A DNA stretch of 64,000 nt from a virus. Lineage: Duplodnaviria; Caudoviricetes. The stretch covers positions 1-64,000 of the IMG/VR virus record IMGVR_UViG_3300037589_000163. One strand, 5' to 3'. Below, piece by piece: positions 1,416-64,000 of the stretch. Position 1 is the stretch's first letter. Every line of letters starts with the position of its first letter. A model generated the notes under the pieces. The model was given only the letters and a program-made list of their open reading frames with translations. It did not search any database and was not told where the DNA came from. The position numbers and the translations under genes are program-made.

Positions 1416-2474
1416 TCAGCCCCGTTTATGCAAAAAATCTGCAAACTTTGTTTCGTCTTCGTTCTGTTTGAAGTCGAAACCAAGCTTTCGGGCCGAAGAC
1501 CCGATCTGAGGGGCGGCAAGTTTGACATAACGAGACCATTCATCCGATTCCCATCCTCCCTCGGTTTTCAATCTCAGGATGTCTTTGGTCTGGGAATAGA
1601 ACCAGGTGGCCCAACTGTGCCTGGCCGTGTGGGGTGTGTATTTGGACGGATCGAGGCCGATATCAGTTACCGCCCTTTGCCACCAAGAAAAATGCCTGCC
1701 GCATTCTCTCGAGGTGTAGGGGCGGCCGTCATATCTCAGGAACAGGGGCCCGGGATCCCCTAGATTTGGTAGGGTGCTCAGGGCAGCCACTGTCCTGGGG
1801 CAAAGTGAGATCATCCTCTCCTTGCCATTTTTGGTGTCTCTCAGGATCGCATATCGATCGGGGAGAGAGATGTCTGTCCTCCCGTCTATCGCCAGGGTTT
1901 CTCCAACACGGGATCCCTGGCCAAAGAGGAAGGTCACGAATGCCGGGGTCCATGGGTTAGGTGTCCGGCTGTCGATGACACGATCTATGACCGCTACTGC
2001 TTCTTCGGGACGAAGAAAGAAGGTCTTCTTGGGGCTGTCTGAAGGCCGGTCGAATTGGGTTCTGACGCCGGCCGAGTGAATGACAGCAATGGTAGGTCCA
2101 TGAAACTGACGGCGCCTGGTGGCTGGATTGGGATAAGCCTTGGCTCCCTGGTCATCGAGCATCATCTGATTGATCTCGTCGACACGGATACGCCCGAAAG
2201 CCTGTCTGGGTTTCACCAGGAACCGCTCTTCACCCCCGTTCATGACGTACCTCCTGGCCGCTTCTTCGAACGTGAGTGTGGGTTCTTTACCGGTGATATT
2301 TTGCTCGGCAACCGCACCCTCGATTTGACGTCGGATGGCGTCTGCTTCGTATTTATCTCGAGTTTTGGTCGACTTCCGGATTTGTTTAGGAGTTGGTCGA
2401 CCATTATTCCAGACTGTGACAGTCCCCTTGATGTACCAAAATCCGTTGGAGTGGAGCGTAAGTTCGAGGGGCAT
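1416..2474 (-). CDS. int: Tyrosine recombinase/integrase
   Basis: Catalytic set present: GSRVGE (R), DTKNG (K), HTARH (HxxR), GGW (W), SRY (Y). Confidence 0.93.
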   Translation of the reverse strand: MPLELTLHSNGFWYIKGTVTVWNNGRPTPKQIRKSTKTRDKYEADAIRRQIEGAVAEQNITGKEPTLTFEEAARRYVMNGGEERFLVKPRQAFGRIRVDEINQMMLDDQGAKAYPNPATRRRQFHGPTIAVIHSAGVRTQFDRPSDSPKKTFFLRPEEAVAVIDRVIDSRTPNPWTPAFVTFLFGQGSRVGETLAIDGRTDISLPDRYAILRDTKNGKERMISLCPRTVAALSTLPNLGDPGPLFLRYDGRPYTSRECGRHFSWWQRAVTDIGLDPSKYTPHTARHSWATWFYSQTKDILRLKTEGGWESDEWSRYVKLAAPQIGSSARKLGFDFKQNEDETKFADFLHKRG

Positions 2475-2656
2475 TGAATCATCCGGTCGGCCAGCTCGAT
2501 GAACTGGTCCTGGTTGAGTTTCACTGTGCGACCATGCCGGACAAAAGGAATATTGTGCCGGCGGATCTGCTCTCGAACGTAGCGTACCGGGTCTATTACG
2601 TCATCATGAGTTATGCCGAGTTTCTCCGCGGCGACTGGTAACGATATGGGGCTCAT
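2240..2656 (-). CDS. Excisionase-like/HTH protein overlapping the int start
   Basis: Likely start MSPISLPVAAEKLG (ATG 2656); MerR/HTH_17-like N-terminus; C-terminal tail overlaps the 5' end of int. Confidence 0.5.
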   Translation of the reverse strand: MSPISLPVAAEKLGITHDDVIDPVRYVREQIRRHNIPFVRHGRTVKLNQDQFIELADRMIQCPSNLRSTPTDFGTSRGLSQSGIMVDQLLNKSGSRPKLEINTKQTPSDVKSRVRLPSKISPVKNPHSRSKKRPGGTS

Positions 2657-2679
2657 ACAAACACACTCTTTCTCTACGA

Positions 2680-2925
2680 CCTGGTTTTGCAACCAGGCTT
2701 CGAGCAAAAGGTTTCCTGTACCGATTGCAAGATAACTTTGGTTATTTTCTCCAACCAAAACCTATAGATTCAATAGGTTGGTTTTGGCGATTCCACACTT
2801 TTTATAAAAATGTGTGGTCCAGTTATCTATCGATTTCAGAAAAAGAGGCAAATGCTAAATTTCGTATTAGCGTTAAAAACAGAAGGAATAAGGTTTATTT
2901 AATCCAAATCCACATGAAAATGTGG
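2680..2925. promoter_or_regulatory. AT-rich, palindrome-rich control region upstream of xis-int
   Basis: Inverted repeats at 2680-2697, 2759-2779, 2793-2817 and 2910-2925. Confidence 0.45.
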
Positions 2926-2940
2926 GAGTGTCTATCTGAC

Positions 2941-2979
2941 AAAAATAAAGATACCCGCCCCATTAAAGGAGCGGGTATC
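2941..2979 (-). terminator. Intrinsic terminator after RNAP2
   Basis: GATACCCGC/GCGGGTATC stem followed by TTTATTTTT on the minus strand. Confidence 0.7.
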
Positions 2980-2985
2980 AAACCC

Positions 2986-4197
2986 TCAGCTGAGAGCGTA
3001 GTTGGTGTCGAAAATGTCCGATACCATGGATGGATCCAGTTTGCCTGTGACGATCGGACGGCCGACGATCTGAGAGACAATGTCTCCCAGGAGAGAGCTG
3101 CCGGCGATCTGGGCAAGCAGGATGTTGTACTGGCGCCGCAGGTCGTTTCCGTAGTTGGGAAGACAGCGGAAGCAGTCATGGACGGACATCACCCGGAAAG
3201 GAACGTCTGGAAGTGATTCCAACAGGTCCTTGATGACACGGGGATTGACGAGCCCCAGGTTCTCCATATCCAGATAGCTCAGGATACGTGCAGAGAGGAA
3301 GTTGGTTCTCTGGTAGTGATCCCAGAGGGTCTGGACGAGCGCGTCCTTTTCCCGGTGAACGCTCCGGCCGGCAGCGCCACGACTGATGTAGTGAACCAGA
3401 TCGTTGTAGTTCCTCCAATCGTAATTGCACCTCCGCTCGATCTCCCTGACGATCATGCCGTCAAGAGAGTGAACCATGTTGGCTCCCAGAGAACGGCCGC
3501 CGGTCATGGGCTTGTTGACCTCGTAGGAGACCTCGAAAGGCTCGTTAAGGAAGTTGACCATTTCGGTTTCCCTGGCCATGACCTTGATGTGGACATGAAA
3601 GTTGTCAGGAAGGACCCAGTCGTTGGAGAATTTGCCCGGATCCCAGATGGCGAGCATGGTCTCGTTGATTTCCCAGGCTCCTGGGGCTCGGTTCTGGAGC
3701 GTTCCGTAGAACAGCTCGAGGAACTGACCTTCACCGAAGATGAGTTTCGGCATGGCCGTCGAGTTGTAGAAAGCCGTCATGATTGCCTTCTTGGTCAGCT
3801 TCCGATCGATCTTGGAAGATCCACCGGTGGCGTTCAGCATGTCCTGGTAGATCTCGACATAGGCATCAGCACGCCGACCAACGTCAACGACGTTGCAGAG
3901 CTCGGCCGCCTTGCGATCGCATGCCAGGGCAGCCAGAATCTGGATACCAGAGCAAGTGGCATCCAGGGAGATGGGATAAGACGTGCTGGTGCCTTTGCAA
4001 GCAGCTTTCCAGGCCTGCACGCCGGCGTAGAAAAGAGCGGGTTCTTCAGCCTGGTTCAGGAGTTTGTCCAGGTTGGATTCGTTGTCGTCGAACCACTTAA
4101 TACGCTGATCCCAGGTATCCTTGTCCAGACCGTGGCCGAAGGAGTTGGCGATGTCGATCTTGAGGTATTCTTTGCCGGTGAAAGTCTGAAAGGTCAT
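2986..4197 (-). CDS. N4-like RNA polymerase II subunit 2 (gp16-like)
   Basis: 403 aa; MTFQTFTGKEYLKIDIAN start; T7-type motifs LDATCSGIQ, KKAIMTAFY, SVHDCF. Confidence 0.92.
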   Translation of the reverse strand: MTFQTFTGKEYLKIDIANSFGHGLDKDTWDQRIKWFDDNESNLDKLLNQAEEPALFYAGVQAWKAACKGTSTSYPISLDATCSGIQILAALACDRKAAELCNVVDVGRRADAYVEIYQDMLNATGGSSKIDRKLTKKAIMTAFYNSTAMPKLIFGEGQFLELFYGTLQNRAPGAWEINETMLAIWDPGKFSNDWVLPDNFHVHIKVMARETEMVNFLNEPFEVSYEVNKPMTGGRSLGANMVHSLDGMIVREIERRCNYDWRNYNDLVHYISRGAAGRSVHREKDALVQTLWDHYQRTNFLSARILSYLDMENLGLVNPRVIKDLLESLPDVPFRVMSVHDCFRCLPNYGNDLRRQYNILLAQIAGSSLLGDIVSQIVGRPIVTGKLDPSMVSDIFDTNYALS

Positions 4198-4215
4198 GTG
4201 GTAGCTCCTTCGTTA

Positions 4216-4782: not shown

Positions 4783-4805
4783 AGGGGTTTTCCTTGTTCA
4801 GAGGG

Positions 4806-5322: not shown

Positions 5323-5532
5323 TCAGCCTGCATCTGCTTTGCCCTTCTCATAGGCAGCAGCCATGAATAGCCCGACGAGACGCATGGCCTCGTCGAACCT
5401 GTTGTGGTCCTGATTGCAGACCTTGAACAGCATCGTGGTCATTGCAGGACATTGAGCCAGTGATGCTGTTGGGTCTTGGACTGAGTAAAACAGATTGTAA
5501 GCGGGATGATCTTCATCCACTGACCACCTCAC
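5323..5532 (-). CDS. Hypothetical protein
   Basis: 69 aa, overlaps the RNAP1 stop. Confidence 0.55.
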   Translation of the reverse strand: MRWSVDEDHPAYNLFYSVQDPTASLAQCPAMTTMLFKVCNQDHNRFDEAMRLVGLFMAAAYEKGKADAG

Positions 5533-6325
5533 CTTCTGCGAATTCGATCATGGCCTTGTTCCAGGGAGTACCCTGGTAGGTGACCGAATAGCCCTGGCAG
5601 TAGGTCCGGCCGCGCTTGTCGTATTTGTGGGTGAGGTAGCATTCACCGCCGCCGGCCAGACCCAGGTGGTGCATGACGTCGAAGGCTGTCCGGTTGTACT
5701 TCTCGAAAGCCTTGACCCGCTTCTGGAACTCGTCCGGGGTCTCGTCCGGCTTGGCTTTGTCCAGGTTCTTCCAGCGGTTCTTGACCGTGGTGGCTACATC
5801 CTGGTTCACACGCAGCTTCATGGAGTTGAGGCTGTTGAGGTGATCGAGACAGACGTCGTCTTCGGTGTGATTGTGCCGGAGAATGACGGATCCCTTGCCG
5901 GTGTAGTAGCCGGTGTCCTTGTTGCTCTCGAGCTTGAGAGGCGCAACGACCATCGGGAGAGGGAACTGGTACCGATCGATCTCATCCTGCACATCCTGGC
6001 TGATGCCGAATTTGATGATGAACTGCCTGGTTGTGGGATTCCAGTCGACGAGATCTGCTTCGACGGCCCGGAGGAGCTCGTCGGTTGTCTTCTGGCAGTT
6101 GCCGTTGAAGTGGTGACGCAAGGCGCCAACCAGGGTAGGCAGCGTCGCACGCTTGTGAAGCACCATCTGAACCAGCAGAGCAACGCCGAAGTCCTGGGGT
6201 ACTTTGTGGTCCTTCATGTGAGCCAGGAAATCGAAGTCATCACACTTCTTGAACTCAGCAGAGATCCGCGGGATCAACTGGTTCTTGTTGAAGAGCTGCT
6301 CCATATCAATCTGGAATTCGATCAT
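5513..6325 (-). CDS. N4-like RNA polymerase II subunit 1 (gp15-like)
   Basis: Start reassigned to MIEFQIDMEQLF (AAAGGAG RBS); RYQFPLPMVV and YLTHKYDKRGRTYCQGY motifs. Confidence 0.9.
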   Translation of the reverse strand: MIEFQIDMEQLFNKNQLIPRISAEFKKCDDFDFLAHMKDHKVPQDFGVALLVQMVLHKRATLPTLVGALRHHFNGNCQKTTDELLRAVEADLVDWNPTTRQFIIKFGISQDVQDEIDRYQFPLPMVVAPLKLESNKDTGYYTGKGSVILRHNHTEDDVCLDHLNSLNSMKLRVNQDVATTVKNRWKNLDKAKPDETPDEFQKRVKAFEKYNRTAFDVMHHLGLAGGGECYLTHKYDKRGRTYCQGYSVTYQGTPWNKAMIEFAEGEVVSG

Positions 6326-6468
6326 GCTTTTCTCCTTTGGAAGGTCGACGTCGATGGTCAGGGATCGAGTGAAAGGGCGATGCGTGGATATGAAGGGCCG
6401 CCGATTGTTCAGCGACCCCAGATATTGAACTGCTGCCACGAGGGCAGTGATGAAGCGGACGATGGAGC

Positions 6469-7098
6469 TCAGAAGGTTCCCCAATATCGGGCCTCCTTCC
6501 CTTTATCTTCGAAGAAAGGTTTCCAGGCTTCGTCGAACAGGCAGTTTAGAGGAGCTGTCAGAAACATGCCTGCCATGTCGTGATCGCTGAGGCCGGCAAG
6601 ACCGCACCCAACACGGGTGACCTGGAATTGCAACATATTCATCGTCGAAGCGAGGCTTATGAAATCCTCGACGTGCTCTTTGATCACATGAGGCTCGAGG
6701 GTTCTGATCTGCCGGTTCTTGGTGGGAATAGCATAGGAATTCCCTTGAAGACCGATGCCCTGGCCGTATTTTGCACCCTTTCTTTCGAGAGCGAACTTGG
6801 CTGCGCCGGCGCCATGCCGACCGGCAAGGTTGGATCCGAAGACGAAAATGAGTTCTGCTTTCGGGTAGGTCCGGTCCATGAGGGTGTGGATCGCTTGTGG
6901 TGGGTCATCGAAAATGATGTTGGCCAATGCAAAGGAACGACGAGCCTTGCGGTGGAGATCGTAGCCTGAGATGAACCAGCCCGGCTCGTAACCGTATCCA
7001 GGTTCCCTAATGTACTGGACCGATTCAAAGAGAACTTCCCGCATATCCGTAGACCCGCGGTGGTTGAGGTATTTGAATATGAGGATGTCCATGGTCAT
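6469..7098 (-). CDS. WYL-like domain fused to an A1S_2505-type (macrodomain-like) domain
   Basis: N-term FKYLNHRG...W..GYDLHRKARRSFAL; C-term IFVFGSNLAGRHGAGAA, SYAIPTK, VTRVGCGLAG. Confidence 0.65.
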   Translation of the reverse strand: MTMDILIFKYLNHRGSTDMREVLFESVQYIREPGYGYEPGWFISGYDLHRKARRSFALANIIFDDPPQAIHTLMDRTYPKAELIFVFGSNLAGRHGAGAAKFALERKGAKYGQGIGLQGNSYAIPTKNRQIRTLEPHVIKEHVEDFISLASTMNMLQFQVTRVGCGLAGLSDHDMAGMFLTAPLNCLFDEAWKPFFEDKGKEARYWGTF

Positions 7099-9372: not shown

Positions 9373-9813
9373 TCAGTCCTTCAAAAGTTCATGGAGGGTT
9401 GCGTGATGTTTGCGGAGATTCATCAGGATCTTCCCGAGATGGTTCTCTCCGACGCCCTTGCAGACGCCCCAGTAGGTATCGCCCCAAGTGTTTCCTTCGA
9501 TGAGCTCGGCGTCGCCGGTGTCGATGAGACGCTTGACCAGCATCGGGTGACTGTTGAACTTCAGTGCGACGATTGCGTACATGACCGGCTGACGCATCTC
9601 CTCCCAGTCAGGCCGGATGTTGATGGTCTTGCCCATCCGCTTTGCCGCGCCGGGAGTCATGCACTTGCTGATTTTCTCCCAGTCTTCTGGATCCGGACTT
9701 TTCATTGCCTGGTACAGATGCTCGGACGTTAACCAGGTGTGGTTGCCGTATTCGATCTGGGCGTAGAAAAAGTTGGAGAGGAACTTGTAGTCGCCGGTGA
9801 AGCTGGTGATCAT
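9373..9813 (-). CDS. NADAR (YbiA-like) family hydrolase
   Basis: FLSNFF, SEHLYQAMK, PGAAKRMGK, LIDTGDAELIEGNTWGDTYWG, GENHLGKILM motifs. Confidence 0.9.
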   Translation of the reverse strand: MITSFTGDYKFLSNFFYAQIEYGNHTWLTSEHLYQAMKSPDPEDWEKISKCMTPGAAKRMGKTINIRPDWEEMRQPVMYAIVALKFNSHPMLVKRLIDTGDAELIEGNTWGDTYWGVCKGVGENHLGKILMNLRKHHATLHELLKD

Positions 9814-10619: not shown

Positions 10620-10690
10620 GAATTCTACTTTTTCACATTATAATAGAGATAATCTTTCAATATATTTTTAAGATAATGACTATTTGATTA
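10620..10690 (-). promoter_or_regulatory. AT-rich intergenic segment, probable promoter/operator
   Basis: Very AT-rich, two GATAAT hexamers (10648, 10672), upstream of a leftward gene block. Confidence 0.4.
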
Positions 10691-11086
10691 TTTAGATTTG
10701 ATGCCGAAAACAGGTATGTCGTTGAGCATAGCTCTTCTGGCCATGTCGTCGGTTCCACGGCCACCAGGAAAAGCAAAAACGAAGTTGGGTTTCCCGATGT
10801 CAATCATATGTTGATTGCGGTGGAAGCCGGCCAGTACATCAAACTTGGTCCCATCAAACCTGGTTCTGACGACAGCACCTGGCCGATCGATGTCGTACCA
10901 AAGAGCTGGGAAAGCTTGTTCAGGGATACCACGACTATCGGCCCATTCTTTTGCGAGCAAATCAGCTCCGCGGGCACCGCCATGAATGATCGATGTGATC
11001 CCCAGTTTAACGACTGCGAGGTCCATGATTTCATGCAAGAGTTTGTGGTCTTTGAAATCGCGACCACCACAGACGAGAGCTCTCAT
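10688..11086 (-). CDS. SLOG-superfamily protein (DUF2493/YspA-like)
   Basis: LVCGGRDF, IIHGGARGAD, RNQHM, AFPGGRGT motifs. Confidence 0.85.
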   Translation of the reverse strand: MRALVCGGRDFKDHKLLHEIMDLAVVKLGITSIIHGGARGADLLAKEWADSRGIPEQAFPALWYDIDRPGAVVRTRFDGTKFDVLAGFHRNQHMIDIGKPNFVFAFPGGRGTDDMARRAMLNDIPVFGIKSK

Positions 11087-11522: not shown

Positions 11523-11957
11523 TTACTCGGCGGCTTCAGGCACCTTCGGCAAAGCGAGCAGCTTGCTGAGGTCGGTGGAGAACTCGTTGGTCTCCGGATC
11601 GACGGCCAGCTCCTCGTTGACCCGGCGAATGCGGATCTTGAGGTTCAGCTCTTCTTCACGGCCGGGATCGAAGTTGGCGCCCATTTCCTGGAGTGCTTCC
11701 AGCAGCTGGTTCTGAGCGATCCGCTGCTTGACCCATTCTTCGTTCTGGCCGCGGACGTCGAGCTTGTCCATGGTGTCGACCGGAATGCCGAAAGGCAGCG
11801 AGATGAAGCGTGCGTTTTCGCCTTCACCGGCTTCGTAGCCGACGTTGATCCAGATCTTGGCCTTCGGCTTGTTGGTGGGATTGGCCAGGCCGGCGAAAGG
11901 GGTGCTCGAGTTGTTGCTGTTCGAGGTGGTGTTGTTTCCGAAATTGATAACGCCCAT
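11523..11957 (-). CDS. N4 gp2-like ssDNA-binding activator of RNAPII
   Basis: Start MGVINFG with AAAGGAG RBS; KPKAKIWINVGY, RFISLPFGIPVD and PGREEELNLKIRIRRVN resemble N4 gp2 homologues. Confidence 0.8.
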   Translation of the reverse strand: MGVINFGNNTTSNSNNSSTPFAGLANPTNKPKAKIWINVGYEAGEGENARFISLPFGIPVDTMDKLDVRGQNEEWVKQRIAQNQLLEALQEMGANFDPGREEELNLKIRIRRVNEELAVDPETNEFSTDLSKLLALPKVPEAAE

Positions 11958-12007
11958 TGTGGTAGCTCCTTTGGTTGGGTGTTCTGGTAGTGTCATGGGT
12001 ATGCTCT

Positions 12008-12027
12008 TCCTGAACGGGCGAAGCCCG
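12008..12027 (-). promoter_or_regulatory. N4 vRNAP-type hairpin promoter
   Basis: Template (+) strand TCC-TGAA-CGGGC-GAA-GCCCG has the same layout as N4 P2 (TCC-AAAA-GAAGC-GGA-GCTTC); directly upstream of gp2. Confidence 0.75.
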
Positions 12028-13313: not shown

Positions 13314-13649
13314 TTAGGACTGTGTTTCGGCGAAGAGGGACTGGTAGTCAGTGACCAGTTCGTTGAACTTTGAAGCACGATCAGGCTGAGACTGGTATTC
13401 CCGACGGTATTCTTCGTGGATGCGCTCCTGATTGCGAGCTGCTTCCATGATGAGGTTGTCACGCCATGTGTGGTCTTCGACCTTGTGAGCGATGATCTGG
13501 TTGTTCTTGGCACGCTGTACGAAGCGGTCGAGCATGTCGACGGATGATGCTGCTGTGTCGATGATCTTGGCTGCTGATTCAGCTGTGGACTGGACAGTGC
13601 CGAGGAGTGCGACGATGGTGTTGGATGTGGTGGATGTGACGTTTGCCAT
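13314..13649 (-). CDS. N4 gp1-like first early protein
   Basis: 111 aa, Thr/Ala-rich N-terminus, first gene next to the end junction, strong RBS. Confidence 0.65.
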   Translation of the reverse strand: MANVTSTTSNTIVALLGTVQSTAESAAKIIDTAASSVDMLDRFVQRAKNNQIIAHKVEDHTWRDNLIMEAARNQERIHEEYRREYQSQPDRASKFNELVTDYQSLFAETQS

Positions 13650-13698
13650 TTTGGTTTTCTCCTGTTGAGAGGTGAGTGATGATCATGTGATCAGGCGA

Positions 13699-13719
13699 TC
13701 CAGAAAGGGCGTAAGCCCT
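13699..13719 (-). promoter_or_regulatory. vRNAP-type hairpin promoter variant (4-nt loop)
   Basis: TCC-AGAA-AGGGC-GTAA-GCCCT upstream of gp1. Confidence 0.6.
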
Positions 13720-14290
13720 GTGTGACTGGGACAACAGGAAGTGAGGCGAGTGCTGAGCTGTGAAGAGGTGGGGTAGGGTGTGAAAGAGATGTGAGAAGAC
13801 ACCGGGGGGGGGTATTTTCTTTTATCGAGATGCCCCGGTGTGAATAGTACCGAGCAGAACTATTATGAGATTACCCACACCCGAAAAAATCTGATAATAT
13901 TATCTCTATAATGTTCTCTTAAAAATATATAATAATTATATATATAATGATTATCAAAACATTGTGTATTATTATCTATAAATATTATCTTTAATAATGA
14001 GGTTTTGTCTCCCCCTTAATGGTATGGGAGTTTGCCCCTGTAAACGACAATATCTCCCCCGCTTCTCTTTCTCTAGTATTTGAGAGGAGAAGGGTAGGCC
14101 TGGGGGGCAAAACAGATAGGGATGGGGGGAAGCTACTCCACAGGGAGGGATCTTGTCTATCCCCGTCGGATCCTTTTGAAGGCCCGAAACTCTTGTCTAT
14201 CTCCAGCGAAGCCCAAAAGCCCAGGGAAAGCCTGGGTTGTTGGAGAGATAGGGGCCAGAAAAAAATATCAGGAATTGCTCAGGAAAAACT
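13720..14290. other. Probable virion genome-end/terminal-repeat junction
   Basis: Non-coding divergent region between gp1 and the terminase-side genes: G9 run (13804-13812), AT-rich core (13860-14000), short repeats (14114-14253). Confidence 0.55.
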
Positions 14291-16105: not shown

Positions 16106-16930
16106 ATGAGTACTCCGTCCCTTTTTAATACCCCACCCCTTTTTAAGGATAATTCGGAGGTCTCCCAGGCGCCGGAGGCGCCACAGCATGTGGAGGAGCC
16201 GCAGGCGCCGGCTGTCGAGAAGAACCCGGCAATGACCCCCACGATCGGACTGATCACCGAGAATGATCTCAAGAGCGCTCTGCCAGCCACCCTGAGATCC
16301 TCCGTCAGCCAGTCCCTGGTCGACAAGGTCAACAGGATCTCAAGTGACCCGATCGCAGCGGAGAACATCCGCAATAATTTCGTCAGCTACACATCGGTGA
16401 TGAAGGAAGGCCGCTTCAAGATCGAGGATTACCTCAATGCGGTGGCTTACGTTTCCTACAAGCTGATGGGGTACAACAACGAGGAATCTTACGCGAAGAC
16501 CTTTCCGCAGCGTTACGCGGACCTGCTCGCGAAGAACACCTCCAAGAAGGACATCTCGGCCTATGTGTCGGCGTATCACCGCGGCAAGCTGGTGAACCTG
16601 ATCATGGAACAGTCCCTGGTTCCCTCCTGGGTCCTAAATCAGGATCTCTTTCAGAAAGCGCTCAACGTGCAGGCCGAACTGATGGCGACGGCCACCAGTG
16701 AGAAGGTGCGTACCGATGCCGCCAACTCGATCCTTACCCACCTCAAGAAGCCTGAAAAGGACTTCCAGCTGAACATCAACACGGAAGATTCCTCCGGCAT
16801 GCGGGAGATGCGGGACACTCTTTCCCAGCTGGCGGCCCAACAGAGGCAGATGATCGAACAGGGTCAGATGAAAACGATCGATGTCGCGGCAGCTCGTCTC
16901 GTCAACAAAAAGGAAGACGACGATGTCTGA
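16106..16930 (+). CDS. N4 gp69-like protein (putative small terminase)
   Basis: Directly upstream of TerL; YLNAVAYVSYKLMG and SEKVRTDAANSILTHLK motifs. Confidence 0.75.
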   Translation: MSTPSLFNTPPLFKDNSEVSQAPEAPQHVEEPQAPAVEKNPAMTPTIGLITENDLKSALPATLRSSVSQSLVDKVNRISSDPIAAENIRNNFVSYTSVMKEGRFKIEDYLNAVAYVSYKLMGYNNEESYAKTFPQRYADLLAKNTSKKDISAYVSAYHRGKLVNLIMEQSLVPSWVLNQDLFQKALNVQAELMATATSEKVRTDAANSILTHLKKPEKDFQLNINTEDSSGMREMRDTLSQLAAQQRQMIEQGQMKTIDVAAARLVNKKEDDDV

Positions 16931-22805: not shown

Positions 22806-22916
22806 ATTTGCTCCATTATGAGAACGTTTCCCCAAATATTATAATTGATAATGTCAAACCATTATGCGATGTGGTATGAAGATAATCGCATCAATCATTT
22901 TGAGAGAAATCACACT

Positions 22917-23819
22917 ATGGTCAAAAAGATTACGGCATACATCGGCGGCATCGAAGGATTCGTGGGCAAATGGTACCTCGATCCGGTCCACATCCCGACC
23001 ATGGGATTTGGCTTCACCTGGCAGTCGAAGATCTTCCGCGAATGGTGGTTGGCGAAGCACGGCCGCAAGTTCAAGCGCGGTGACACGATTTCGAAAGCCG
23101 ATGCGCTCATCGTTCTTCAGCGGATGATCGATCTGGAATATGGCCCCCCTGTCCAGAAAGCTTTTGCCGGCCGGCCTGAACACGTCCGTGATGCAGGCAC
23201 ATCCATGATTCTCAACTGCGGTGCCGGCGCCTTGAAGTGGCGTTGGGCCCAGGCAATCATGCGTGGCGATATCAAGGAAGGTTGTCGCTTGTGGCGAACA
23301 ACCGCAACCACGGCCCGGGGCAAGAAGCTTCCTGGACTGGTTCGTCGTCGCCGCGAAGAAGCGACCATTGCCGAGATGAACATCTACCCTTCCTGGATGG
23401 GCTACGCTCCTCCGAAGGAAGTGAAGAACCATGTTGCGGTCGAAGACATCACCCAGGCACAAACCTGGCTCCAGAATCTCGACTACTACCATGGTCAGCT
23501 TGACGGGATCGTCGGGAAGAAAACCATCAGTGCCACGAAGCGTTTCCAGGCCGACCATGGAACGCTGAGGGTCGACGGCATCATCGGTACAGCAACCCTC
23601 TCCGCTCTTCAGCGTGCGAACGACTTCAAGACCAAGAGCAAAACGAGCGCAGCAGGCGGAACGGCTGCGGCCGGAGGTGGCGCAGCCACCGACTGGTCGT
23701 GGGCAAGTGACGTCCTGCTCTGGGGCGGTCTGGCAGTCGCCGTGATCGGTCTGGGCTACCTGGCTTACCGTTACCGGGATGAAGTCAAAGTCTCCCTCAA
23801 AAAATTCAAGGCCAGCTGA
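22917..23819 (+). CDS. Endolysin: GH24 lysozyme + peptidoglycan-binding domain + C-terminal TM
   Basis: E-x8-D-x5-T triad (EGFVGKWYLDPVHIPT), LPGLVRRRREE, DGIVGKKT..FQ..DGIIGTAT, hydrophobic C-terminal helix. Confidence 0.9.
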   Translation: MVKKITAYIGGIEGFVGKWYLDPVHIPTMGFGFTWQSKIFREWWLAKHGRKFKRGDTISKADALIVLQRMIDLEYGPPVQKAFAGRPEHVRDAGTSMILNCGAGALKWRWAQAIMRGDIKEGCRLWRTTATTARGKKLPGLVRRRREEATIAEMNIYPSWMGYAPPKEVKNHVAVEDITQAQTWLQNLDYYHGQLDGIVGKKTISATKRFQADHGTLRVDGIIGTATLSALQRANDFKTKSKTSAAGGTAAAGGGAATDWSWASDVLLWGGLAVAVIGLGYLAYRYRDEVKVSLKKFKAS

Positions 23820-53155: not shown

Positions 53156-53911
53156 TCAGTTGTTGAAGAGCGAGCCGGTGGGCTTTGCCGAGTTTGCCTG
53201 CGGCGGGCTGCCGGGACGGCCGCTCTTGCCCTGCTGTGCCGAAGAACCATCCTTGATCGAACGCTTGTCCCGGACTTTGCCGGAGTTGATTTCGACCCAG
53301 GCCGGGTAGAAGGCAGCGGTCTGGACGCCCTTCTTGGCTTCGGGGATGGTCAGGTTCGAGGGGTGGTGGAAAACCTTGTCGATGCAGTTTTCCTCGCGGG
53401 TGTCCGCGGTGTCCTCGTAGACGCCGGCCGAGTTCTTGGCCTGCTTGTTGACGAGCTGCTTCATGATACCGAGGCTGACCTGTTTGCCGAGCACTTCAAC
53501 CAGCATCTTGACGGTCGTCGGAACTTCCTTCTTGGCCTCGAAATCGTAAATGTTGACCACCTTCTCTTCGGACGGCTGTTCAGACAGAGGCTTGCCGGTG
53601 GTCGCCAGGCAGATGTCGTCGATCGTGGTGAAGCCGGGGAGAGGAACCTTCTTCGACTTGTCGTTCTTGTCGAGATAGAAGTTCTGGTTCTGTCGGTTGG
53701 TGACCCAGATGGTCTCTCGGTATTCCTTGCCCTGTGCGTCCTTGGCGGTCACTGTGACGGACCGGGCCTGGGAATTGGCAGCGTCGCCGGCGTAGAAAGA
53801 TGTGATGGTATAGAGATCAATGCCGCTTTCGCGGACGGAGAAATTCCCTCCGAGACGATCTTCGGCCTCTTCAAGGCCATCGTTTGTCAGATTGCCAAAC
53901 TCGTTGCTCAT
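53156..53911 (-). CDS. N4-like single-stranded DNA-binding protein (gp45-like)
   Basis: LPGFTTIDDICL, REENCIDKVFH, C-terminal SLF; synteny. Confidence 0.85.
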   Translation of the reverse strand: MSNEFGNLTNDGLEEAEDRLGGNFSVRESGIDLYTITSFYAGDAANSQARSVTVTAKDAQGKEYRETIWVTNRQNQNFYLDKNDKSKKVPLPGFTTIDDICLATTGKPLSEQPSEEKVVNIYDFEAKKEVPTTVKMLVEVLGKQVSLGIMKQLVNKQAKNSAGVYEDTADTREENCIDKVFHHPSNLTIPEAKKGVQTAAFYPAWVEINSGKVRDKRSIKDGSSAQQGKSGRPGSPPQANSAKPTGSLFNN

Positions 53912-54736: not shown

Positions 54737-56905
54737 TCAGGCCACCTGCTTATTGCTGCTGAAGCGCTTGGCGACTGTCACCATGATGGTGCTGTCGATT
54801 TCCTGCTTGCTCATGGGGTTCTGGAGCTTGGTGTTGAAAGCATGAACCTGAGCTTCAACGTTGGGGAGATCCCAGCCGGCGTCGACCAGTGTCAGGGCGT
54901 ACCTGATCATCTGGTTATTCCGGTTTCCGAGAGAGATCTTCCCGGCAAACCAGCGCTCGAGATTGTCAAGAGACTGGAGAGCCTGGTGCTCAGCGAGATG
55001 AGTTTCATTTCGTGCTGTCTTCGGAATGAAGTTCAGCACGTCAAGGACTTCTCCATCCGTGTTGTAGAAGTACTCACCGCCGGAAAAAGATTCCGACTTC
55101 TTCTCGCGTTTGGAATAGCTTTCATCCGTCTTGAACGGCAGCCAGGAGAAAATGTGGCTCATGAATTCGCTGTATTCAGTATTGTCGAGTTTGAGCCGGT
55201 AGTTGATTGGCAGCATGACCCGAAACCGATCTCCGTGACCTTCCGTCTGATGACGTTTGGTCGTGTAGAGATGGTATTTGTAGTCGGCCATGAGATGACG
55301 GAACTGGTCGATCGAGATGCCTTCATCGACATCCAAGGCAATCATGTTGAAGCCAACAATGACGTTGTCTTCAGTCCGGTGCCCGTTTTGGAAGTGATGA
55401 TTGCACCAGTGCATTCCATCTGCCTGGGTCAGGATGTGCAGCTTGTCGAAAGGAACTGACTCTGCGAGGTAATTGTAGGCCCAGTGGTTGGAGTAGGAGA
55501 GGGTGATCGCATCCAGATCCGTTTGCTGAAGAGTTTCGCCGCGGAACATCTCGATCCCGTCGACAAAATTCTTCTTGATGATCATGTGCCGCCGGTAACC
55601 CCAGGCGGTGGCCAGGGTCATCATCTCATTTCTGGCTGACTGACCAGATTTGTAGAACGGCAATGCTTCGACCAGGTCGGCATGAGTGACTTCATGATCA
55701 AGGCTGGTGATGTATTTCGCCAGTTTGACGTAGGCCTTTTCACGATTGAGAATGGTCTGGAAAGCAGCGCCGGACTCCTCGACCAGCTTCATGGAAGCGT
55801 AGAGATGATCCAGGGTGATGGTGACCGACTGGTCGATGAAGGCAAAGGCGCCGGCAAGCTTCAGCGTCTTGAAGTAACGATGAGCCAGTTCGGACTTCTT
55901 GATTTCCTCGTGGTCCGACATTGTGTCAGACAGCCGCTCGCAGTGGAGCCGGTAGTCGAGAAGAGCAATTGCCACTTCTTCCGGAACATCCATTTTCCAA
56001 CCAAAGACGGCCGGATCTGCGAGTTGGTAAAAATGCCTCGACCACTTGTCGACAATGGCATTGTGGGCCGGCTGCGTCAGACGCTTGTAGGCCTCTTCAC
56101 CAGTCATGTTGTCCAGGGCCCGGCTGTGAGCGCCGTAACCGAAGATGCAGCGACGAGCGTAGCCTGTTTCCAGGAAAGAGTAGAACTGGTCTTCCGTCTG
56201 GCTCCCATCCAGGAGTTTCGAAGGCGTACCGAACAGAAGCATGTTGGTCGGTGTCTTGCCGTCGATGTCTTCGCCACGCTGATTGTCTGGCGTGTTCTTC
56301 ACAAGCTTGATCTTGACCGATCCTTGGTCATAGAGCTCCAGGAAAAGGGTAAGAACGTCTGTCACGCCAAGAAGGTTGGAACCAATCTCGTCGATCTGGA
56401 GGTTGATGCTGCCGGCGTTGGCCATGAGAAGCTTCTGACGAAGCTGCTTGACGGCCGGCGGTGTTCCGGAATCGAAAGTGAAAGGGAAGGCGCCGGCGCT
56501 GCGGAATTCCTTCTGGATCTTGTCGAACTCTTCTTGCGGATCCAGACCAGATTTGACGGAACGAAGATTTGCCTCTTTCCAGAGGCTGTCTTCCGCCAGG
56601 ACGGGGAAAGTTTCCGTCATGAAGCGATCCTTGAAATCCTTCATGAATTCGTTCTCGACGATCGAGACGGAGTAACCCTTGCCGTAACCGGAAGTGGCCA
56701 GAGCCAGAGCATAGATGTTGACCGGGATTTCACCGCGGTCCTGGGTGATCATCGAAGCCCGCATGGAGGAAGCCATCTTGCCGATGAAGTAGGCCACCTC
56801 AGCGCGGAAAAATCCACGATCCATGTTCTGGGTCTTGTTGCAGAGAACGTCGACGATTTCCTCGATAACCGGGTGGTGGTCAACGACGGAGAGGTCAGGC
56901 AACAT
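54737..56905 (-). CDS. N4-like DNA primase (gp43-like)
   Basis: ATSGYGKG, FDSGTPPAVKQ, ALDVDEG, RFRVMLP, GNRNNQMIRYA. Confidence 0.85.
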   Translation of the reverse strand: MLPDLSVVDHHPVIEEIVDVLCNKTQNMDRGFFRAEVAYFIGKMASSMRASMITQDRGEIPVNIYALALATSGYGKGYSVSIVENEFMKDFKDRFMTETFPVLAEDSLWKEANLRSVKSGLDPQEEFDKIQKEFRSAGAFPFTFDSGTPPAVKQLRQKLLMANAGSINLQIDEIGSNLLGVTDVLTLFLELYDQGSVKIKLVKNTPDNQRGEDIDGKTPTNMLLFGTPSKLLDGSQTEDQFYSFLETGYARRCIFGYGAHSRALDNMTGEEAYKRLTQPAHNAIVDKWSRHFYQLADPAVFGWKMDVPEEVAIALLDYRLHCERLSDTMSDHEEIKKSELAHRYFKTLKLAGAFAFIDQSVTITLDHLYASMKLVEESGAAFQTILNREKAYVKLAKYITSLDHEVTHADLVEALPFYKSGQSARNEMMTLATAWGYRRHMIIKKNFVDGIEMFRGETLQQTDLDAITLSYSNHWAYNYLAESVPFDKLHILTQADGMHWCNHHFQNGHRTEDNVIVGFNMIALDVDEGISIDQFRHLMADYKYHLYTTKRHQTEGHGDRFRVMLPINYRLKLDNTEYSEFMSHIFSWLPFKTDESYSKREKKSESFSGGEYFYNTDGEVLDVLNFIPKTARNETHLAEHQALQSLDNLERWFAGKISLGNRNNQMIRYALTLVDAGWDLPNVEAQVHAFNTKLQNPMSKQEIDSTIMVTVAKRFSSNKQVA

Positions 56906-58922: not shown

Positions 58923-61613
58923 TCAGGCGTAAAGTTTGAGGACGTGTTTCTCAAAGACTTCCCGGATTTCCTCCTGGGAAGCGTGGTTTGGGAGGACAGC
59001 TTCCTTGCTCCAGTTGGGGTAGAAGATCGAGAACTCGCCCCCTAATTTCACCTCGTCATGCCAGATGTCAGGATGATCCTGCCACTGGCACGCCTTCACC
59101 ACATGAGTGTTGGCGTAGTGGACGACGTTGATGTCATCCCGAGCGAGGTAATATTGGGCATCGTGAATCTGAGCTGAAGGCTTGATCTTGTGACGCATGT
59201 CTGTCGATCGAACCTTATTCATAAACTCAGAGCCTGCCCTGGAGTTCAGGAGGCACCAGGATTGCCCGAGAGCATTGCCGGCGGTTCTACCCTCCGCTTC
59301 TGCCTGGAAAGGCGTCTTGGAGGTCCCAAGGACAACCTGGTGCAGCATCGGCGTCCGAACACGCAGCCCAAAGGCAACAGTGACATAACCGACTTTGCAG
59401 GCTTCATTGAGCTTCTGAGCGACCCAATCATCCGACACTTTATAAAGGGTGTGGTAATTGGTTTCGATCTTCTGGGCTTTCTCGATGTCCCAACCCAGTT
59501 GTTGCATGATCCCGATGTATGTTCCCCCGTAAGTGAGGAGGAACGTCGGGGTCTTGGAATCCTGGCGAAAGCTGGAGTATTTGTTCCCTTTCTCGGAAAG
59601 CTGATTGACGCTTTCAACTGAATCGGGATCGATGTCCGGCATTTCTTCGCCAAAATAGGCCACTGCCCGGAGAGAGTGGCCGTCATAGCCGTCGGTGTAG
59701 ACCTTCAGCTTGTTTGGATCCTTTGTCGTCAAAGCCGATATGCGATCTTCGAGAGAAGCAAAGTCGATGCCGCAGAAGAACCAGCCAGGAGGTGCCACGA
59801 AGCAGCTCTTGATGAGCTTTCCGAGGCTGAGCTGACCCTTGCTGATGTAGGGACCGAGGACGTCTTCAAATCTCTCTATGAGAGCTTTTGACAACATCAT
59901 GAAGACGTTGGCCGGCAGATTCTGAAGGTTGACGTTACTCGACGACAAGCGCCCGGAGACAGTGCCTCCCAGGTTAAAGAAACCGAAGAGCCAATGCCAT
60001 CCATCCGGACCGAGACGTGCATTCATGAAGTGCGGCATGAAGTTGGTCATGATGGTCTCGACGGCCGAATAATCAATCAGGGCTTCGAGAAGCTTTTTGA
60101 CCTCTGGATCATTCGTGTGGTTGACCAGTTTTTTCAGGGTCTTGCCGCCGGTTGCCGGCTGTTTGGTGTCGGTCCGGTCTATAACCGGCAAGCCCAGCAC
60201 GTCATATAGAAGTTGCTGAAGCTGCGGGCCGCTGTTGGGGTTGAATGATATTTCCTTCTGGATCGTATCATTTTCCTTGGCGGCTGCGGCCATCTCCTGG
60301 ATCGTCATCCGCTTCTTGACCCACTCCGAATTCTTCTGGTTCGTGTAGGCTTCGAGACGCATGTATTCGAACTGCTCCATGATAGGTAGAGCGAGCATCC
60401 GGTTGATGGCATCGTTACGGATACCTTCGAGAGCCGTGTTGACCTTCCGGACTTGTTCGATGTCCATCGGCATGCCGGTAAGCTGCATCTGGATGATGTC
60501 TCTGGTCGCATCCTTGAACAAGCCTTCGTAGAGCTCGAGCTGTTCATCCTTGATCAAGGTCTGCCAGTGCTTTTTACGCACATAGTGTGTGCAAAGGCAG
60601 TCGATCAGGTTGTAGGTGAGAAGATCCGGAAGAGGGATCTTGGTGATGTCCTTGATTTCTTCCTGAGCATAATCGCCGGCGTATTCTTGGGCCTGGTTTT
60701 TCAGGCTGAGCTTGTTGCCGGCGCAGGAATTGGTTGCCAGGTAAGAGATGAGCTGGGTGCAGTCCCAGTTTCTCAACATGATTTCCAGCCCACGAAGGAG
60801 ACCTTCGTTGTCGAGGAGATCCTTCATGAAAAGTTGGTAGATCAGGACTGTGACATCGTAAGCAATACGATGATAAAGGGCCTTTCTCTTGAATCTCATG
60901 AAGAAATTGCGAAGGAGCTCCCGGCAAGCATCGGAATGCTCCTGATCTCCCAGGATATCAACCGGTATGGCAATACCCTCGGTCTCAGACCAAGCAAAGC
61001 CTATGGTACCAATTCCAGCATCATAATGCTTGAGTGAGAATGCTTCGATGTCGATCGCGATATCGCAATCCATTTCCAGGATGCGCTCGAGCCAGGCAGC
61101 GATATCTTCAATGTCCGTGGGATACTCCTCGAACTTGATGATGCCTGTCCCTGGGTCCGTATAGGTGTCGTGGAGCCACTCTTTCAAGGCACCAACACCA
61201 GCCGCGATCTTCTGATTCACCTTCTCCGGATCGTAAAAGATTGTCCGGTAGTTGGGAACATAGGCGACCTTCCAGGGCCCGAAAGTGGTGTCCAGGATGT
61301 AGCCGATGGTGGCGTCGATTTTACCGACTTTTGTCAGGGTCTTGTAGTAATCGCCGTCGGCAACGAGAAGGAATTCAACGTTGAGTTCCTTCAAAGTCGG
61401 AGCAAGCTCATCATTGATGTAAGCTTTCTGCTCCGAGGCCGGCGTCTTCTTTTTGCCAGGCGCTCGGTGCAGATCGATGATGATCACATCTTCCGGATCG
61501 ATACCATAAGGCTCGAGATAAGCCCTCTGGATCTCATTCTTGCGAATTTCGTTCACAAGGATGCAGATCTTGTAGCTGGATTTTTCAGGCGTGCTGAAAG
61601 TCAGATATCGCAT
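58923..61613 (-). CDS. Family A DNA polymerase (N4 gp39-like)
   Basis: Exo I DIEA, Exo III YNLID, motif A DFASLEDR, motif B RQDSKTPTF..Y, motif C IHDA. Confidence 0.95.
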   Translation of the reverse strand: MRYLTFSTPEKSSYKICILVNEIRKNEIQRAYLEPYGIDPEDVIIIDLHRAPGKKKTPASEQKAYINDELAPTLKELNVEFLLVADGDYYKTLTKVGKIDATIGYILDTTFGPWKVAYVPNYRTIFYDPEKVNQKIAAGVGALKEWLHDTYTDPGTGIIKFEEYPTDIEDIAAWLERILEMDCDIAIDIEAFSLKHYDAGIGTIGFAWSETEGIAIPVDILGDQEHSDACRELLRNFFMRFKRKALYHRIAYDVTVLIYQLFMKDLLDNEGLLRGLEIMLRNWDCTQLISYLATNSCAGNKLSLKNQAQEYAGDYAQEEIKDITKIPLPDLLTYNLIDCLCTHYVRKKHWQTLIKDEQLELYEGLFKDATRDIIQMQLTGMPMDIEQVRKVNTALEGIRNDAINRMLALPIMEQFEYMRLEAYTNQKNSEWVKKRMTIQEMAAAAKENDTIQKEISFNPNSGPQLQQLLYDVLGLPVIDRTDTKQPATGGKTLKKLVNHTNDPEVKKLLEALIDYSAVETIMTNFMPHFMNARLGPDGWHWLFGFFNLGGTVSGRLSSSNVNLQNLPANVFMMLSKALIERFEDVLGPYISKGQLSLGKLIKSCFVAPPGWFFCGIDFASLEDRISALTTKDPNKLKVYTDGYDGHSLRAVAYFGEEMPDIDPDSVESVNQLSEKGNKYSSFRQDSKTPTFLLTYGGTYIGIMQQLGWDIEKAQKIETNYHTLYKVSDDWVAQKLNEACKVGYVTVAFGLRVRTPMLHQVVLGTSKTPFQAEAEGRTAGNALGQSWCLLNSRAGSEFMNKVRSTDMRHKIKPSAQIHDAQYYLARDDINVVHYANTHVVKACQWQDHPDIWHDEVKLGGEFSIFYPNWSKEAVLPNHASQEEIREVFEKHVLKLYA

Positions 61614-61627
61614 TACGTATTCCTGTC

Positions 61628-62137: not shown

Positions 62138-62154
62138 TTTATTGCTCTTTCTGA

Positions 62155-63477
62155 TCAGGGGGCGATCAGGCCACCATATTTTTCAGCGAGATCGCCCCAG
62201 AGATAGACCCGAGTCTTGGCACGGGAGAAGGCCACATAAAGCAGCCTGGATACCTGGTCCGGGAAGTTACAGGAACTGATGTTGGTGAGGTCGACAAAGA
62301 CAGTGTCGTATGTCGAACCCTGGGACTTGTGAACGGTGGCGGCATCACGAGGACGCAGATCAGCCACATTGTTCTTCAGGAAAAAAGACTTTTCCCAGTT
62401 CTTTTCGCGCTTGTAGTAGCGCATCAGGTCCGAATAATGGTCCCGATTGGTTGGAACAGGTAGTTTCCAGACGTTTCCCAGAGAATCCTTGATAGAAAGC
62501 ATGTCGACGTCCAGGTGAACGCCATGGTCGTCGTCTATCAGCAACTTGTCTGGGCCGTGGTTCTGAAGAACCTCAACATCGGTTTCCACGGCCAACACGC
62601 CCCCCTTGGAATGAAAGGCGTTGCCGGCAACGAGATACTCTCCCGACTGAAAGTTGGAAGGGAGATTTCTGATTGCACGGACGTGTTCGTTGAAATCGTG
62701 GACCCGTTTGTTGGTGTAAGCCAGGATACGAGCAGAATGCGTCTGTTGAGAAAAGTGCTGGCCGATCTCGAATTGCATTTCCGAATCGCCGAGCAAGTCG
62801 ATGCTGCCTGGAACCAGCTGAATCGGTTCGAAGACCTTGGTTTCGACGGTCTTGCGCAGCTGATCGCAGATTTTCATGAGAGCAGGTTGACCGGCGTTTC
62901 GGACCGGCTCATGAAGCTCCACCATAGGACTGTTGTGCTTGTAGATAGGAGACAGATCCTCATGTACAGGTGAAAGCTGGTGACGGTCCCCAACATAGAC
63001 GATCTTGCACTTCATGGTCGACGCATGGATCTCTTTCCAGAGACCCGTGTCGATCAGAGAGGCTTCGTCGACGAAGATGATTTGTCCCGAATGAACCTTC
63101 CATTGCCGGTTGCGTGTGATCTTCGTCTTACCCGATGAATAATCATCGAAAAGCTTCAGATTGAGATGGGAATGTGTGGTGCCGGCGGGGCGCTTAACGC
63201 TCTGGGTCAACACCTCTGCCGCCTTGTTGGTTGTTGCAGTCATGACAACTTCGGTGAAAACAGGCTCTTCGCCCAGAAGAGCACACATTTCATGATACCG
63301 CGGGAGAGTGGCATCAATGATGTAGCTCATCAGATATGTCTTGCCGACGCCGGCCGGTCCGGAAATGATGAACTCCTTCTTGTCTGAAAAAAGGAAGTTC
63401 ATGAAGGCGTCAGCGGCTGCTTCTTGGCCCTGGTTCAGGTTGTAGCTCAGGGGGGCTGGCTTTGTGATGGCGTTCAT
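62155..63477 (-). CDS. SF1B (Dda/RecD-like) DNA helicase
   Basis: GPAGVGKT, VDEAS, VGDRHQL, TVHKSQGST, LYVAFSR. Confidence 0.93.
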   Translation of the reverse strand: MNAITKPAPLSYNLNQGQEAAADAFMNFLFSDKKEFIISGPAGVGKTYLMSYIIDATLPRYHEMCALLGEEPVFTEVVMTATTNKAAEVLTQSVKRPAGTTHSHLNLKLFDDYSSGKTKITRNRQWKVHSGQIIFVDEASLIDTGLWKEIHASTMKCKIVYVGDRHQLSPVHEDLSPIYKHNSPMVELHEPVRNAGQPALMKICDQLRKTVETKVFEPIQLVPGSIDLLGDSEMQFEIGQHFSQQTHSARILAYTNKRVHDFNEHVRAIRNLPSNFQSGEYLVAGNAFHSKGGVLAVETDVEVLQNHGPDKLLIDDDHGVHLDVDMLSIKDSLGNVWKLPVPTNRDHYSDLMRYYKREKNWEKSFFLKNNVADLRPRDAATVHKSQGSTYDTVFVDLTNISSCNFPDQVSRLLYVAFSRAKTRVYLWGDLAEKYGGLIAP

Positions 63478-63511
63478 AAGACACTCTTTGTTGATTATGC
63501 ATCAGGCATAG

Positions 63512-63540
63512 AAAAACCCCGGTTTGTGGCCGGGGTTTTT
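63512..63540. terminator. Bidirectional intrinsic terminator
   Basis: AAAAACCCCGG-TTTGTGG-CCGGGGTTTTT. Confidence 0.8.
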
Positions 63541-63565
63541 CAGTCGCGCCTGGAATGTTGAAGGT

Positions 63566-63919
63566 TCAGGTTTCCTGTTCCTGTTCATCGATCAGGAACT
63601 TGTCTCGTTTCTTGCCACGGATCCAGGCTGGCTCTTTGCCTCGCCCTGACCATGTGGCGCCGGTATCAGGATCCCGGTACTTGATCTTTGCCTTGACGCC
63701 TTTTCTGCGTGGCTTGATGCCTCCGAGAGCTTCGAAGAGGTCTTCGAGGGGGACGTTGAAGCGGTTCACCACATCAACGATCTGTTTGATAACCTGGCGT
63801 CGCTCAGCAGCTTCTTTTTCCTGGATCTTGCGAGCCAGTTCTTCCTGCTGCTGACGCAACTCCTCGACGCTCATCTCTTCATTCTCAGAGCCGAAAGTGA
63901 CGGTCTCTTTTGCGGCCAT
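63566..63919 (-). CDS. hns: H-NS family DNA-binding protein (frame stays open upstream to the window edge)
   Basis: Coiled-coil N-terminal part and KYRDPDTGATWSGRGKEPAW H-NS signature. Confidence 0.88.
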   Translation of the reverse strand: MAAKETVTFGSENEEMSVEELRQQQEELARKIQEKEAAERRQVIKQIVDVVNRFNVPLEDLFEALGGIKPRRKGVKAKIKYRDPDTGATWSGRGKEPAWIRGKKRDKFLIDEQEQET

Positions 63920-64000
63920 GCCCCCATCCTTTTCTTCTTCAGAGGAAGCCTCGTGCCCGCCATCGGTCGTATCGACCTCATCAGCACGCGGATCTCCATC

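Follow-up and report, generated by a model that had tools for sequence, protein, structure and literature searches.

N4-like phages have long been treated as purely lytic; they are used as strictly lytic candidates for therapy and biocontrol and serve as the standard example of a phage that injects its RNA polymerase. Integrated N4-like phages are already known: a 2023 survey reported 40 integrated N4-like proviruses, mostly in Moraxella, and 54 N4-like genomes with an integrase or a diversity-generating retroelement (PMC10654107). Here we describe a 64,000-bp stretch of DNA (the window), which comprises positions 1–64000 of one 74,015-bp virus record, IMGVR_UViG_3300037589_000163, classed as 'linear' in IMG/VR and given a completeness of 100% by CheckV. 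The window very probably belongs to an N4-like (Schitoviridae-type) prophage that is complete and apparently functional and measures about 72.9 kb. It lies in the chromosome of a marine Hoeflea, where it would have inserted by tyrosine-integrase recombination between its phage attachment site (attP) and the host gene for tRNA-Ser(GCT). What is new is the host, the fully mapped attachment (att) sites, and a minority geometry in which the displaced piece of the tRNA gene is a 5' fragment.

The proviruses of the 2023 survey resemble this element in their N4 hallmark genes, tyrosine integrase and host flanks, and the survey's conclusion that some N4-like viruses are temperate agrees with ours. The main text of that survey, however, contains no Hoeflea, Rhizobiales or Alphaproteobacteria and no att-site mapping, whereas here the junctions, the core, relatives in the attP form and the origin of the integration cassette are defined. 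Set against 40 described proviruses, the first-pass annotation of this DNA overstated the interest of an integrated N4-like genome as such, but the question it raised about the lysogeny switch stands, no classical repressor having been found.

Escherichia phage N4 itself (Enquatrovirus N4, NC_008720) shares with the element a collinear gp1–gp69 core, in which the virion RNA polymerase (vRNAP), RNAPII, single-stranded DNA-binding protein (SSB), DNA polymerase (DNAP), portal and major capsid protein (MCP) are 31–78% identical. N4 differs in being lytic and in carrying the accessory genes gp17–23 in the slot where this phage has an xis-like gene, int, attP and a helix-turn-helix (HTH) gene; neither its tail sheath gp65 nor its lysis genes can be recognised in the element. 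Temperate T7-like podoviruses (HTVC019P-type pelagiphages and Pseudomonas LUZ100) likewise belong to a classically lytic family driven by a phage RNA polymerase (RNAP), with the integrase beside the polymerase gene and att sites in tRNA genes. T7-like phages, however, make their RNAP after infection, whereas N4-like phages inject theirs, so that an N4-like prophage is without the enzyme for its own early promoters.

Islands that integrate upstream of a tRNA gene, and pelagiphages whose core lies close to the tRNA 5' end, have been described before. The 5'-fragment islands of Islander, a minority among tRNA-gene islands (159 of 3,919, or 4%; PMC4383910), the Klebsiella clade I.d islands upstream of arg2, and the pelagiphages HTVC021P and HTVC022P all combine an anticodon-centred att site with insertion on the upstream side of the tRNA and a 5' fragment displaced in like orientation. 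These elements are not N4-like, whereas the present case concerns tRNA-Ser(GCT) in Rhizobiales and implies a replacement promoter for it.

The left end of the window is host DNA. GC content is 0.60–0.67 in bases 1–1400 and about 0.52 beyond, with the drop at about 1400. The truncated open reading frame (ORF) at 3–989 has about 300 relatives (304), spread over Rhizobiales and Rhodobacterales, with no Pfam or NCBIfam family matched, and up to window position 1022 the host-side DNA is 92% identical to the genome of H. alexandrii DSM 16655. The only tRNA found by ARAGORN in the window is the tRNA-Ser(GCT), and in four Hoeflea genomes the one tRNA-Ser(GCT) gene matches window 1237–1330 at 100% identity. 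Judged by these identities, the DNA at the window start is genuine Hoeflea (Rhizobiales), which bears out the alphaproteobacterial-type host DNA of the first-pass annotation, as do the H. alexandrii protein that matches ORF 3–989 (Table 1) and the shift in GC content.

Homology to five Hoeflea genomes, all of which have common conserved DNA upstream of the tRNA, stops exactly at 1330/1331, 2 nt beyond the tRNA 5' end. The element had initially been placed at 1416–64000, directly against host DNA; the juxtaposition holds, but the boundary lies at 1330/1331 and not at 1416, and the other end about 252 bp past the 74,015-bp contig. Read on the tRNA strand, the core at this left junction (attL) begins 2 nt before the 5' end and runs through the acceptor stem, the D arm and the anticodon stem and loop to the 3' anticodon stem (...CTGCTAAGGG).

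A right junction (attR) inside the contig was ruled out: no repeat of at least 13 bp of window 1100–1500 occurs elsewhere in it, a terminal overlap is also absent, and attR turned out to lie 252 bp past the contig end. In five N4-like viral contigs without int, RNAP2 is followed by homologues of the last two genes of the contig, gp24 and gp25; the two ends of the contig must therefore adjoin in the phage, which placed attR at or just past 74,015. When the gp24 homologue was looked up by exact protein match, a 2,655-bp Joint Genome Institute (JGI) metagenome contig (L098) was obtained, whose positions 1013–2655 are 100% identical to contig 74015–72373. Positions 714–760 of L098 repeat window 1330–1284 (47 bp with one mismatch, 44 bp of them perfect), and positions 1–760 correspond to the DNA upstream of the tRNA in Hoeflea, with 80% identity to DSM 16655 over 806 bp and 93–94% over 114 bp to other strains. 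In a four-way alignment with the empty host site (attB), attL and attB agree as far as the right edge of the core, and attR agrees with attB from the core's left edge onward. The attR that the first-pass annotation had left to be found is thus located: the core stands as a direct repeat at attL in the window and at attR in the independently assembled L098, continuous with attB in five Hoeflea genomes. With window 1331 as one end and a point 252 bp past the contig as the other, the prophage measures about 72.9 kb. The Logan contigs of two runs match either the phage side or the host side with 100% identity and end inside the core, where a repeat would be expected to break an assembly; the sequence is 100% identical across three assemblies.

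The integrase gene adjoining this junction is intact, as first annotated. The protein scores 44.4 bits against PF00589, for which the cut-off is 27.1, and its full active site (R189, K215, H282, R285, W308 and Y316) is invariant among 12 aligned family members. It has 183 homologues, with 55–76% identity in Rhizobiales (Mesorhizobium, Sinorhizobium, Rhizobium, Aureimonas) and in many metagenomes; a similar integrase was absent from the cultured N4-like phages searched, and a search for close relatives among IMG/VR contigs gave a single weak match. The phage P' arm between core and integrase carries a conserved TTTGTTCnCGTT adjoining the int stop codon, and an alignment of four loci shows this post-int motif to be kept in all of them; it is a candidate arm-type site.

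For the Xis-like gene of the first-pass annotation, position and fold speak in favour, but sequence support is weak. The xis-like ORF lies directly upstream of int in seven loci, and L104, L106, L110, L111, L112 and L118 all have it there. It matches HTH_17 at E=0.04, with 14.6 bits against a cut-off of 27 and hence below the family threshold, and the excisionase profile phrog_1840 at E=1.3e-3; a profile of its domain, searched against PDB sequences, matched none. The AlphaFold2 (AF2) model, with a predicted local distance difference test (pLDDT) score of 90.7, is a MerR-type winged helix whose nearest structure is RacA, at a template-modelling (TM) score of 0.78. Comparison with Pukovnik Xis, RdfS and Tn916 Xis gave TM scores of 0.54–0.71 (Pukovnik Xis TMt 0.71) with non-significant E-values, all Foldseek E-values for the model being above 0.01. 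The xis-like frame stays open for 76–78 codons into int, to the same end point, in five of the seven loci and is closed early in two, so that the N-terminal domain alone is secure; in some family members the overlap may nonetheless be a true extension of the gene.

Together, the xis-like gene, int and attP form a cassette in the slot between RNAP2 (gp16) and gp24. Read along the minus strand, RNAP2 is followed by a strong terminator (2979–2950), an AT-rich spacer, the xis-like ORF, int, the P' arm and the core, the spacer (2657–2949; GC 0.37–0.44 at 2600–3000) separating the RNAP2 terminator from xis and int. The site specificity is family-wide: in every int-homologue context examined, a tRNA-Ser 5'-half block of 46–47 bp lies 84–152 bp after int. 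L108, L110 and L111 contain a full tRNA with its 5' end toward int, which is the attL form in like geometry. The carriers are diverse, L106/L107 being a lambdoid-type prophage (ERF, HTH_3, GapR) and L111 an HK97-type phage, while L104 (a 73,062-bp contig; int 63% identical) and L112 (a 23-kb contig; int 75% identical) are N4-like. L104 and L112 share the order RNAP2, xis-like ORF, int, a tRNA fragment only, gp24, gp25 and further middle genes, by which they are the unintegrated attP form, with the cassette in the same slot. An intact int was absent from all 12 IMG/VR relatives of gp24. In L118 (IMGVR_UViG_3300013132_000173), positions 5836–6437 hold the xis-like ORF, int codons 1–86 only and an HTH gene, without a tRNA core; by its gene content this locus is a decayed lysogeny cassette.

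As far as these contexts tell, the cassette comes from a pool common to lambdoid and HK97-type prophages of Rhizobiales, and its N4-like carriers are a small temperate lineage of three genomes and one with a decayed cassette, some descendants appearing to have lost the module. N4-like phages of Rhizobiales would have acquired a local integration module, and temperate N4-like lineages may arise when a ready-made local xis/int/attP cassette enters the accessory slot after RNAP2. For this one system, attL, attR, attB, relatives in the attP form and a decayed relative are all identified.

To assess the remainder of the genome, the annotated proteins of phage N4 (NC_008720) were translated and searched against the whole contig with tblastn. 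Collinear, near full-length matches were obtained for gp1, gp2, gp14–16, gp24, gp25, gp30, gp33–35, gp37–40, gp42–46, gp48/49, gp50–59 and gp66–69. PHROGs back the identities of RNAP1 and RNAP2, and Pfam finds a T7-like RNA_pol domain in ORF 2986–4197. The full N4 core first reported for this DNA (vRNAP, RNAP1/2, gp1, gp2, portal, MCP, the large terminase subunit TerL, DNAP, SSB and primase) was confirmed in all its members, each of them full length and collinear with N4. The vRNAP aligns end to end with N4 gp50 (31.7% identity over 3649 columns), with stops absent. Its residues R1439, D1583, R1688, K1692, Y1700 and D1979 align to catalytic or template residues of N4, six of six being conserved; for the N4 mini-vRNAP we take R424, D559, R666, K670, Y678 and D951 to be the catalytic numbering, and the N4 letters at these positions agreed. 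By these comparisons the N4-like genome of the element is complete and undamaged, and it belongs to a lineage of which no member is in culture, because the nearest cultured phages have a TerL identity of only about 70% (at most 70.6% to any cultured phage).

This completeness bears on whether the prophage is cryptic or defective, that is, trapped in the host and unable to excise or to start the vRNAP-dependent cascade. We consider this unlikely. A repressor or induction circuit is not recognisable, the early promoters require a polymerase that an induced prophage lacks, the int cassette has decayed in the relative L118, and an attP/attB form of this very phage was not found among the contigs searched, all of which would fit a trapped element. 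The core ORFs, however, are all full length with intact catalytic residues, the sequence is 100% identical in three assemblies, and close cassette-bearing relatives occur as unintegrated 73-kb and 23-kb contigs.

The geometry of the insertion has consequences for the host. The tRNA half carried by the phage is the 5' one instead of the usual 3' one, which puts the prophage upstream of the tRNA. As in the Islander class, a full tRNA gene (1239–1328, minus strand) is accompanied by int inside the element (1416–2474, minus strand) and by a displaced 5' fragment (L098 714–760) that lies upstream in like orientation. Two other placements, in which the tRNA is a phage gene or integration occurred at the tRNA 3' end, were excluded because the breakpoint falls at the 5' end and the core is the 5' half. 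At attL the intact tRNA is retained without its native upstream DNA. The sequence TTGACT-17 nt-CAATTA in the phage arm ends 8 nt ahead of the tRNA, and in the alignment both L104 and the native Hoeflea promoter have a TTGAC −35-like element at equal distance. The phage-arm element would serve as a replacement promoter for tRNA-Ser, which is needed because tRNA-Ser(GCT) is single-copy in these Hoeflea genomes; the host's sole tRNA-Ser(GCT) gene would then rely on a phage-supplied promoter for as long as the prophage is integrated.

At attR, the native promoter is followed by the tRNA 5' fragment, 196 bp, the HTH gene and gp24, and L104 has an equivalent order. Such an arrangement could mean that integration captures the strong native tRNA-Ser promoter for the HTH gene and the gp24 middle operon, and thereby provides either a host-RNAP entry into the cascade or an integration-dependent immunity factor. 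We find this distinctly improbable: all three N4-like cassettes have a terminator-like hairpin and T-run beyond the core, which at attR lies about 50 bp after it, the phage promoter-like element holds the same place in the attP form, so that integration alters little, and the HTH gene is missing in L112. A chimeric assembly, in which a lytic N4-like genome was misjoined to Hoeflea DNA at a tRNA-like sequence, is extremely improbable, for although attL is spanned by one contig only, the join falls at a tRNA (a common repeat) and IMG/VR gives the record no provirus flag, the first-pass view of a non-chimeric junction is upheld by the reciprocal junction on an independent contig (P arm, 47-bp core and native tRNA-upstream DNA), which excludes a chimeric join, by the phage integrase family, which as a whole has exactly this core beside int, and by the genes at the contig ends, which are adjacent in relatives.

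Several observations weigh against a complete and functional prophage. The attR is known from a separate assembly and not from the contig of the window, and both junctions are known from assembled contigs. The Xis assignment is weak by sequence. The N4-type vRNAP domain occurs in 0 of 400 sampled host-family genomes, with the positive control working, and integration is therefore rare. No repressor of the CI/LexA type, including the S24 domain, was recognised among the ORFs scanned. An 81-aa Cro/C1-type HTH ORF lies near attR (contig 73826–74071, cut by the contig end; L098 957–1202), but its HTH_3 score of 20.6 bits is below the Pfam cut-off of 23, and the gene is missing in L112 and present in L115, which is without int. 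Given that distribution, the ORF finds no support as a cassette-linked repressor. A paralogue of it, a second small Cro/C1-like HTH protein, is encoded at contig 70810–71070, also with a sub-cut-off HTH_3 score of about 20.6 bits.

For a complete, apparently functional prophage, the following course of events can be proposed. Relative to the N4 virion map, that of the prophage is circularly permuted, which implies circularisation of the linear virion DNA before integration; the virion ends would be expected in the AT-rich 13.65–14.0 kb between the early and late blocks. Int would recombine attP with the single-copy host tRNA-Ser(GCT). Since the core covers the tRNA from its 5' end as far as the 3' anticodon stem, the crossover would most likely take place in or close to the anticodon loop. 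The product would have at attL an intact tRNA behind the phage promoter-like element, and at attR the native promoter and a truncated tRNA fragment followed by the hairpin. The xis-like protein would direct excision. The attP-form relatives L104 and L112 lend indirect support to an Int that catalyses integration and, with Xis, excision. Silence of the prophage would stem largely from early promoters that require virion-delivered vRNAP, with the small HTH and/or H-NS-like proteins assisting. Homologues of the H-NS-domain protein occur in N4-like relatives without int too and are therefore not lysogeny-specific.

Candidates for such early promoters are found upstream of the gp2 and gp1 homologues, where GC-rich 5-bp hairpins with loops of 3–4 nt at 12008–12027 and 13699–13719 resemble those of N4. 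Their template-strand sequences, read by hand, are CGGGC-GAA-GCCCG and AGGGC-GTAA-GCCCT; a crude scan for hairpin promoters was uninformative, and these two hand-read candidates are what remains. A prophage is without injected vRNAP to read its early promoters, and the cascade is therefore perhaps off by default. Lysogeny might even do without a classical repressor, a tentative idea to which we give limited credence: early promoters read by virion-delivered vRNAP only, middle promoters in need of early RNAPII and late promoters in need of a middle-gene activator would lock the genome by default, the role of the small HTH or H-NS-like proteins would be confined to aborting the cascade during establishment, and induction would come from leakage of host RNAP into a cascade gene such as that for vRNAP. 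It is this regulatory logic that makes the element interesting, and the locus makes it testable: Hoeflea has cultured species and offers a concrete system for the shut-off and restart of an injected-enzyme cascade.

Table 1. Features of the window, with the coordinates of the host flank, the integration cassette and the N4-like genes
Feature	Position	Strand	Evidence
Host gene, 5'-truncated conserved hypothetical protein, Hoeflea chromosome	3–989	+	94% aa identity to H. alexandrii DSM 16655
Intact tRNA-Ser(GCT), 5' end toward prophage	1239–1328	−	ARAGORN; identity to Hoeflea tRNA
attL core, 44 bp perfect (47 bp at 1284–1330, one mismatch), repeated at attR	1287–1330		Four-way attL/attR/attB alignment
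Phage P' arm	1331–1415	−	Promoter-like TTGACT (1360–1365), 17 nt, CAATTA (1337–1342), toward tRNA; putative function
Tyrosine integrase, 352 aa	1416–2474	−	PF00589 E=2e-11; phrog_1 E=5e-24
xis-like ORF; N-terminal ~62 aa MerR-type winged helix; tail overlaps int start in other frame	2240–2656	−	Weak hidden Markov model matches, position, fold
Intrinsic terminator after RNAP2, 12-bp stem and T-run	2950–2979	−	Terminator scan
RNAP2 (N4 gp16 homologue)	2986–4197	−	50.6% to gp16 over 407 aa; phrog_2051 E=2e-150
RNAP1 (N4 gp15 homologue)	5513–6484	−	53.5% to gp15; phrog_2166
gp2 homologue (early)	11523–11996	−	44% to N4 gp2; identical gene in L101 marked PF26984 Phage_N4_Gp2
gp1 homologue (early)	13314–13649	−	34% to N4 gp1
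AT-rich divergent region between early (−) and late (+) blocks; virion genome ends would join there	13650–14018		Sequence; N4 map order
gp69-like gene and TerL (gp68)	16106–18557	+	59.6% and 68.3% to N4
Endolysin (lysozyme and peptidoglycan-binding)	22845–23819	+	PF00959, PF01471; phrog_7
Portal (gp59)	26354–28594	+	55.9% to N4 gp59
Major capsid protein (gp56)	30408–31607	+	78% to N4 gp56
Virion RNA polymerase (gp50), 3546 aa, uninterrupted	38603–49243	+	PF21894, PF21769, PF21867 above cut-off
SSB (gp45)	53156–53911	−	39% to N4 gp45
Primase (gp43)	54737–56905	−	62.5% to N4 gp43
DNA polymerase (gp39)	58923–61613	−	56.8% to N4 gp39
Helicase (gp37)	62155–63477	−	42% to N4 gp37
H-NS C-terminal-domain protein, reaching contig 64057	63566–64000	−	PF00816 E=2e-13

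The other side of the tRNA also varies among Hoeflea strains, the distance between flank gene and tRNA being 10–43 kb elsewhere versus about 215 bp here. Window 1120–1271, which comprises 33 nt of the tRNA-Ser 3' end and about 120 bp downstream, is repeated elsewhere at 88% identity in two Hoeflea genomes. From this recurrence and the variable gap, the 3' side of the tRNA-Ser looks like an island hot spot; a paper on hot spots in S. meliloti has nothing on the present integration site. At L111:10001–13049, a tRNA-Ser(GCT) lies between two prophages, the 5' one with an integrase of the present family, the 3' one an HK97-type phage with a 558-aa integrase.

In L096, L097 and L116–L118, RNAP2 matches in two pieces (residues 1–139 and 140–403) that are 300–800 bp apart, a pattern that points to something inserted in the polymerase gene, perhaps an intron or a homing endonuclease. 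The phage genes further include those for an appendage protein, a dUTPase and a dCMP deaminase. In the early region, ORF 10688–11086 encodes a SLOG-family YAcAr protein (PF10686), and a gene of L101 identical to ORF 9373–9813 is marked NADAR (PF08719); both may be counter-defence candidates.

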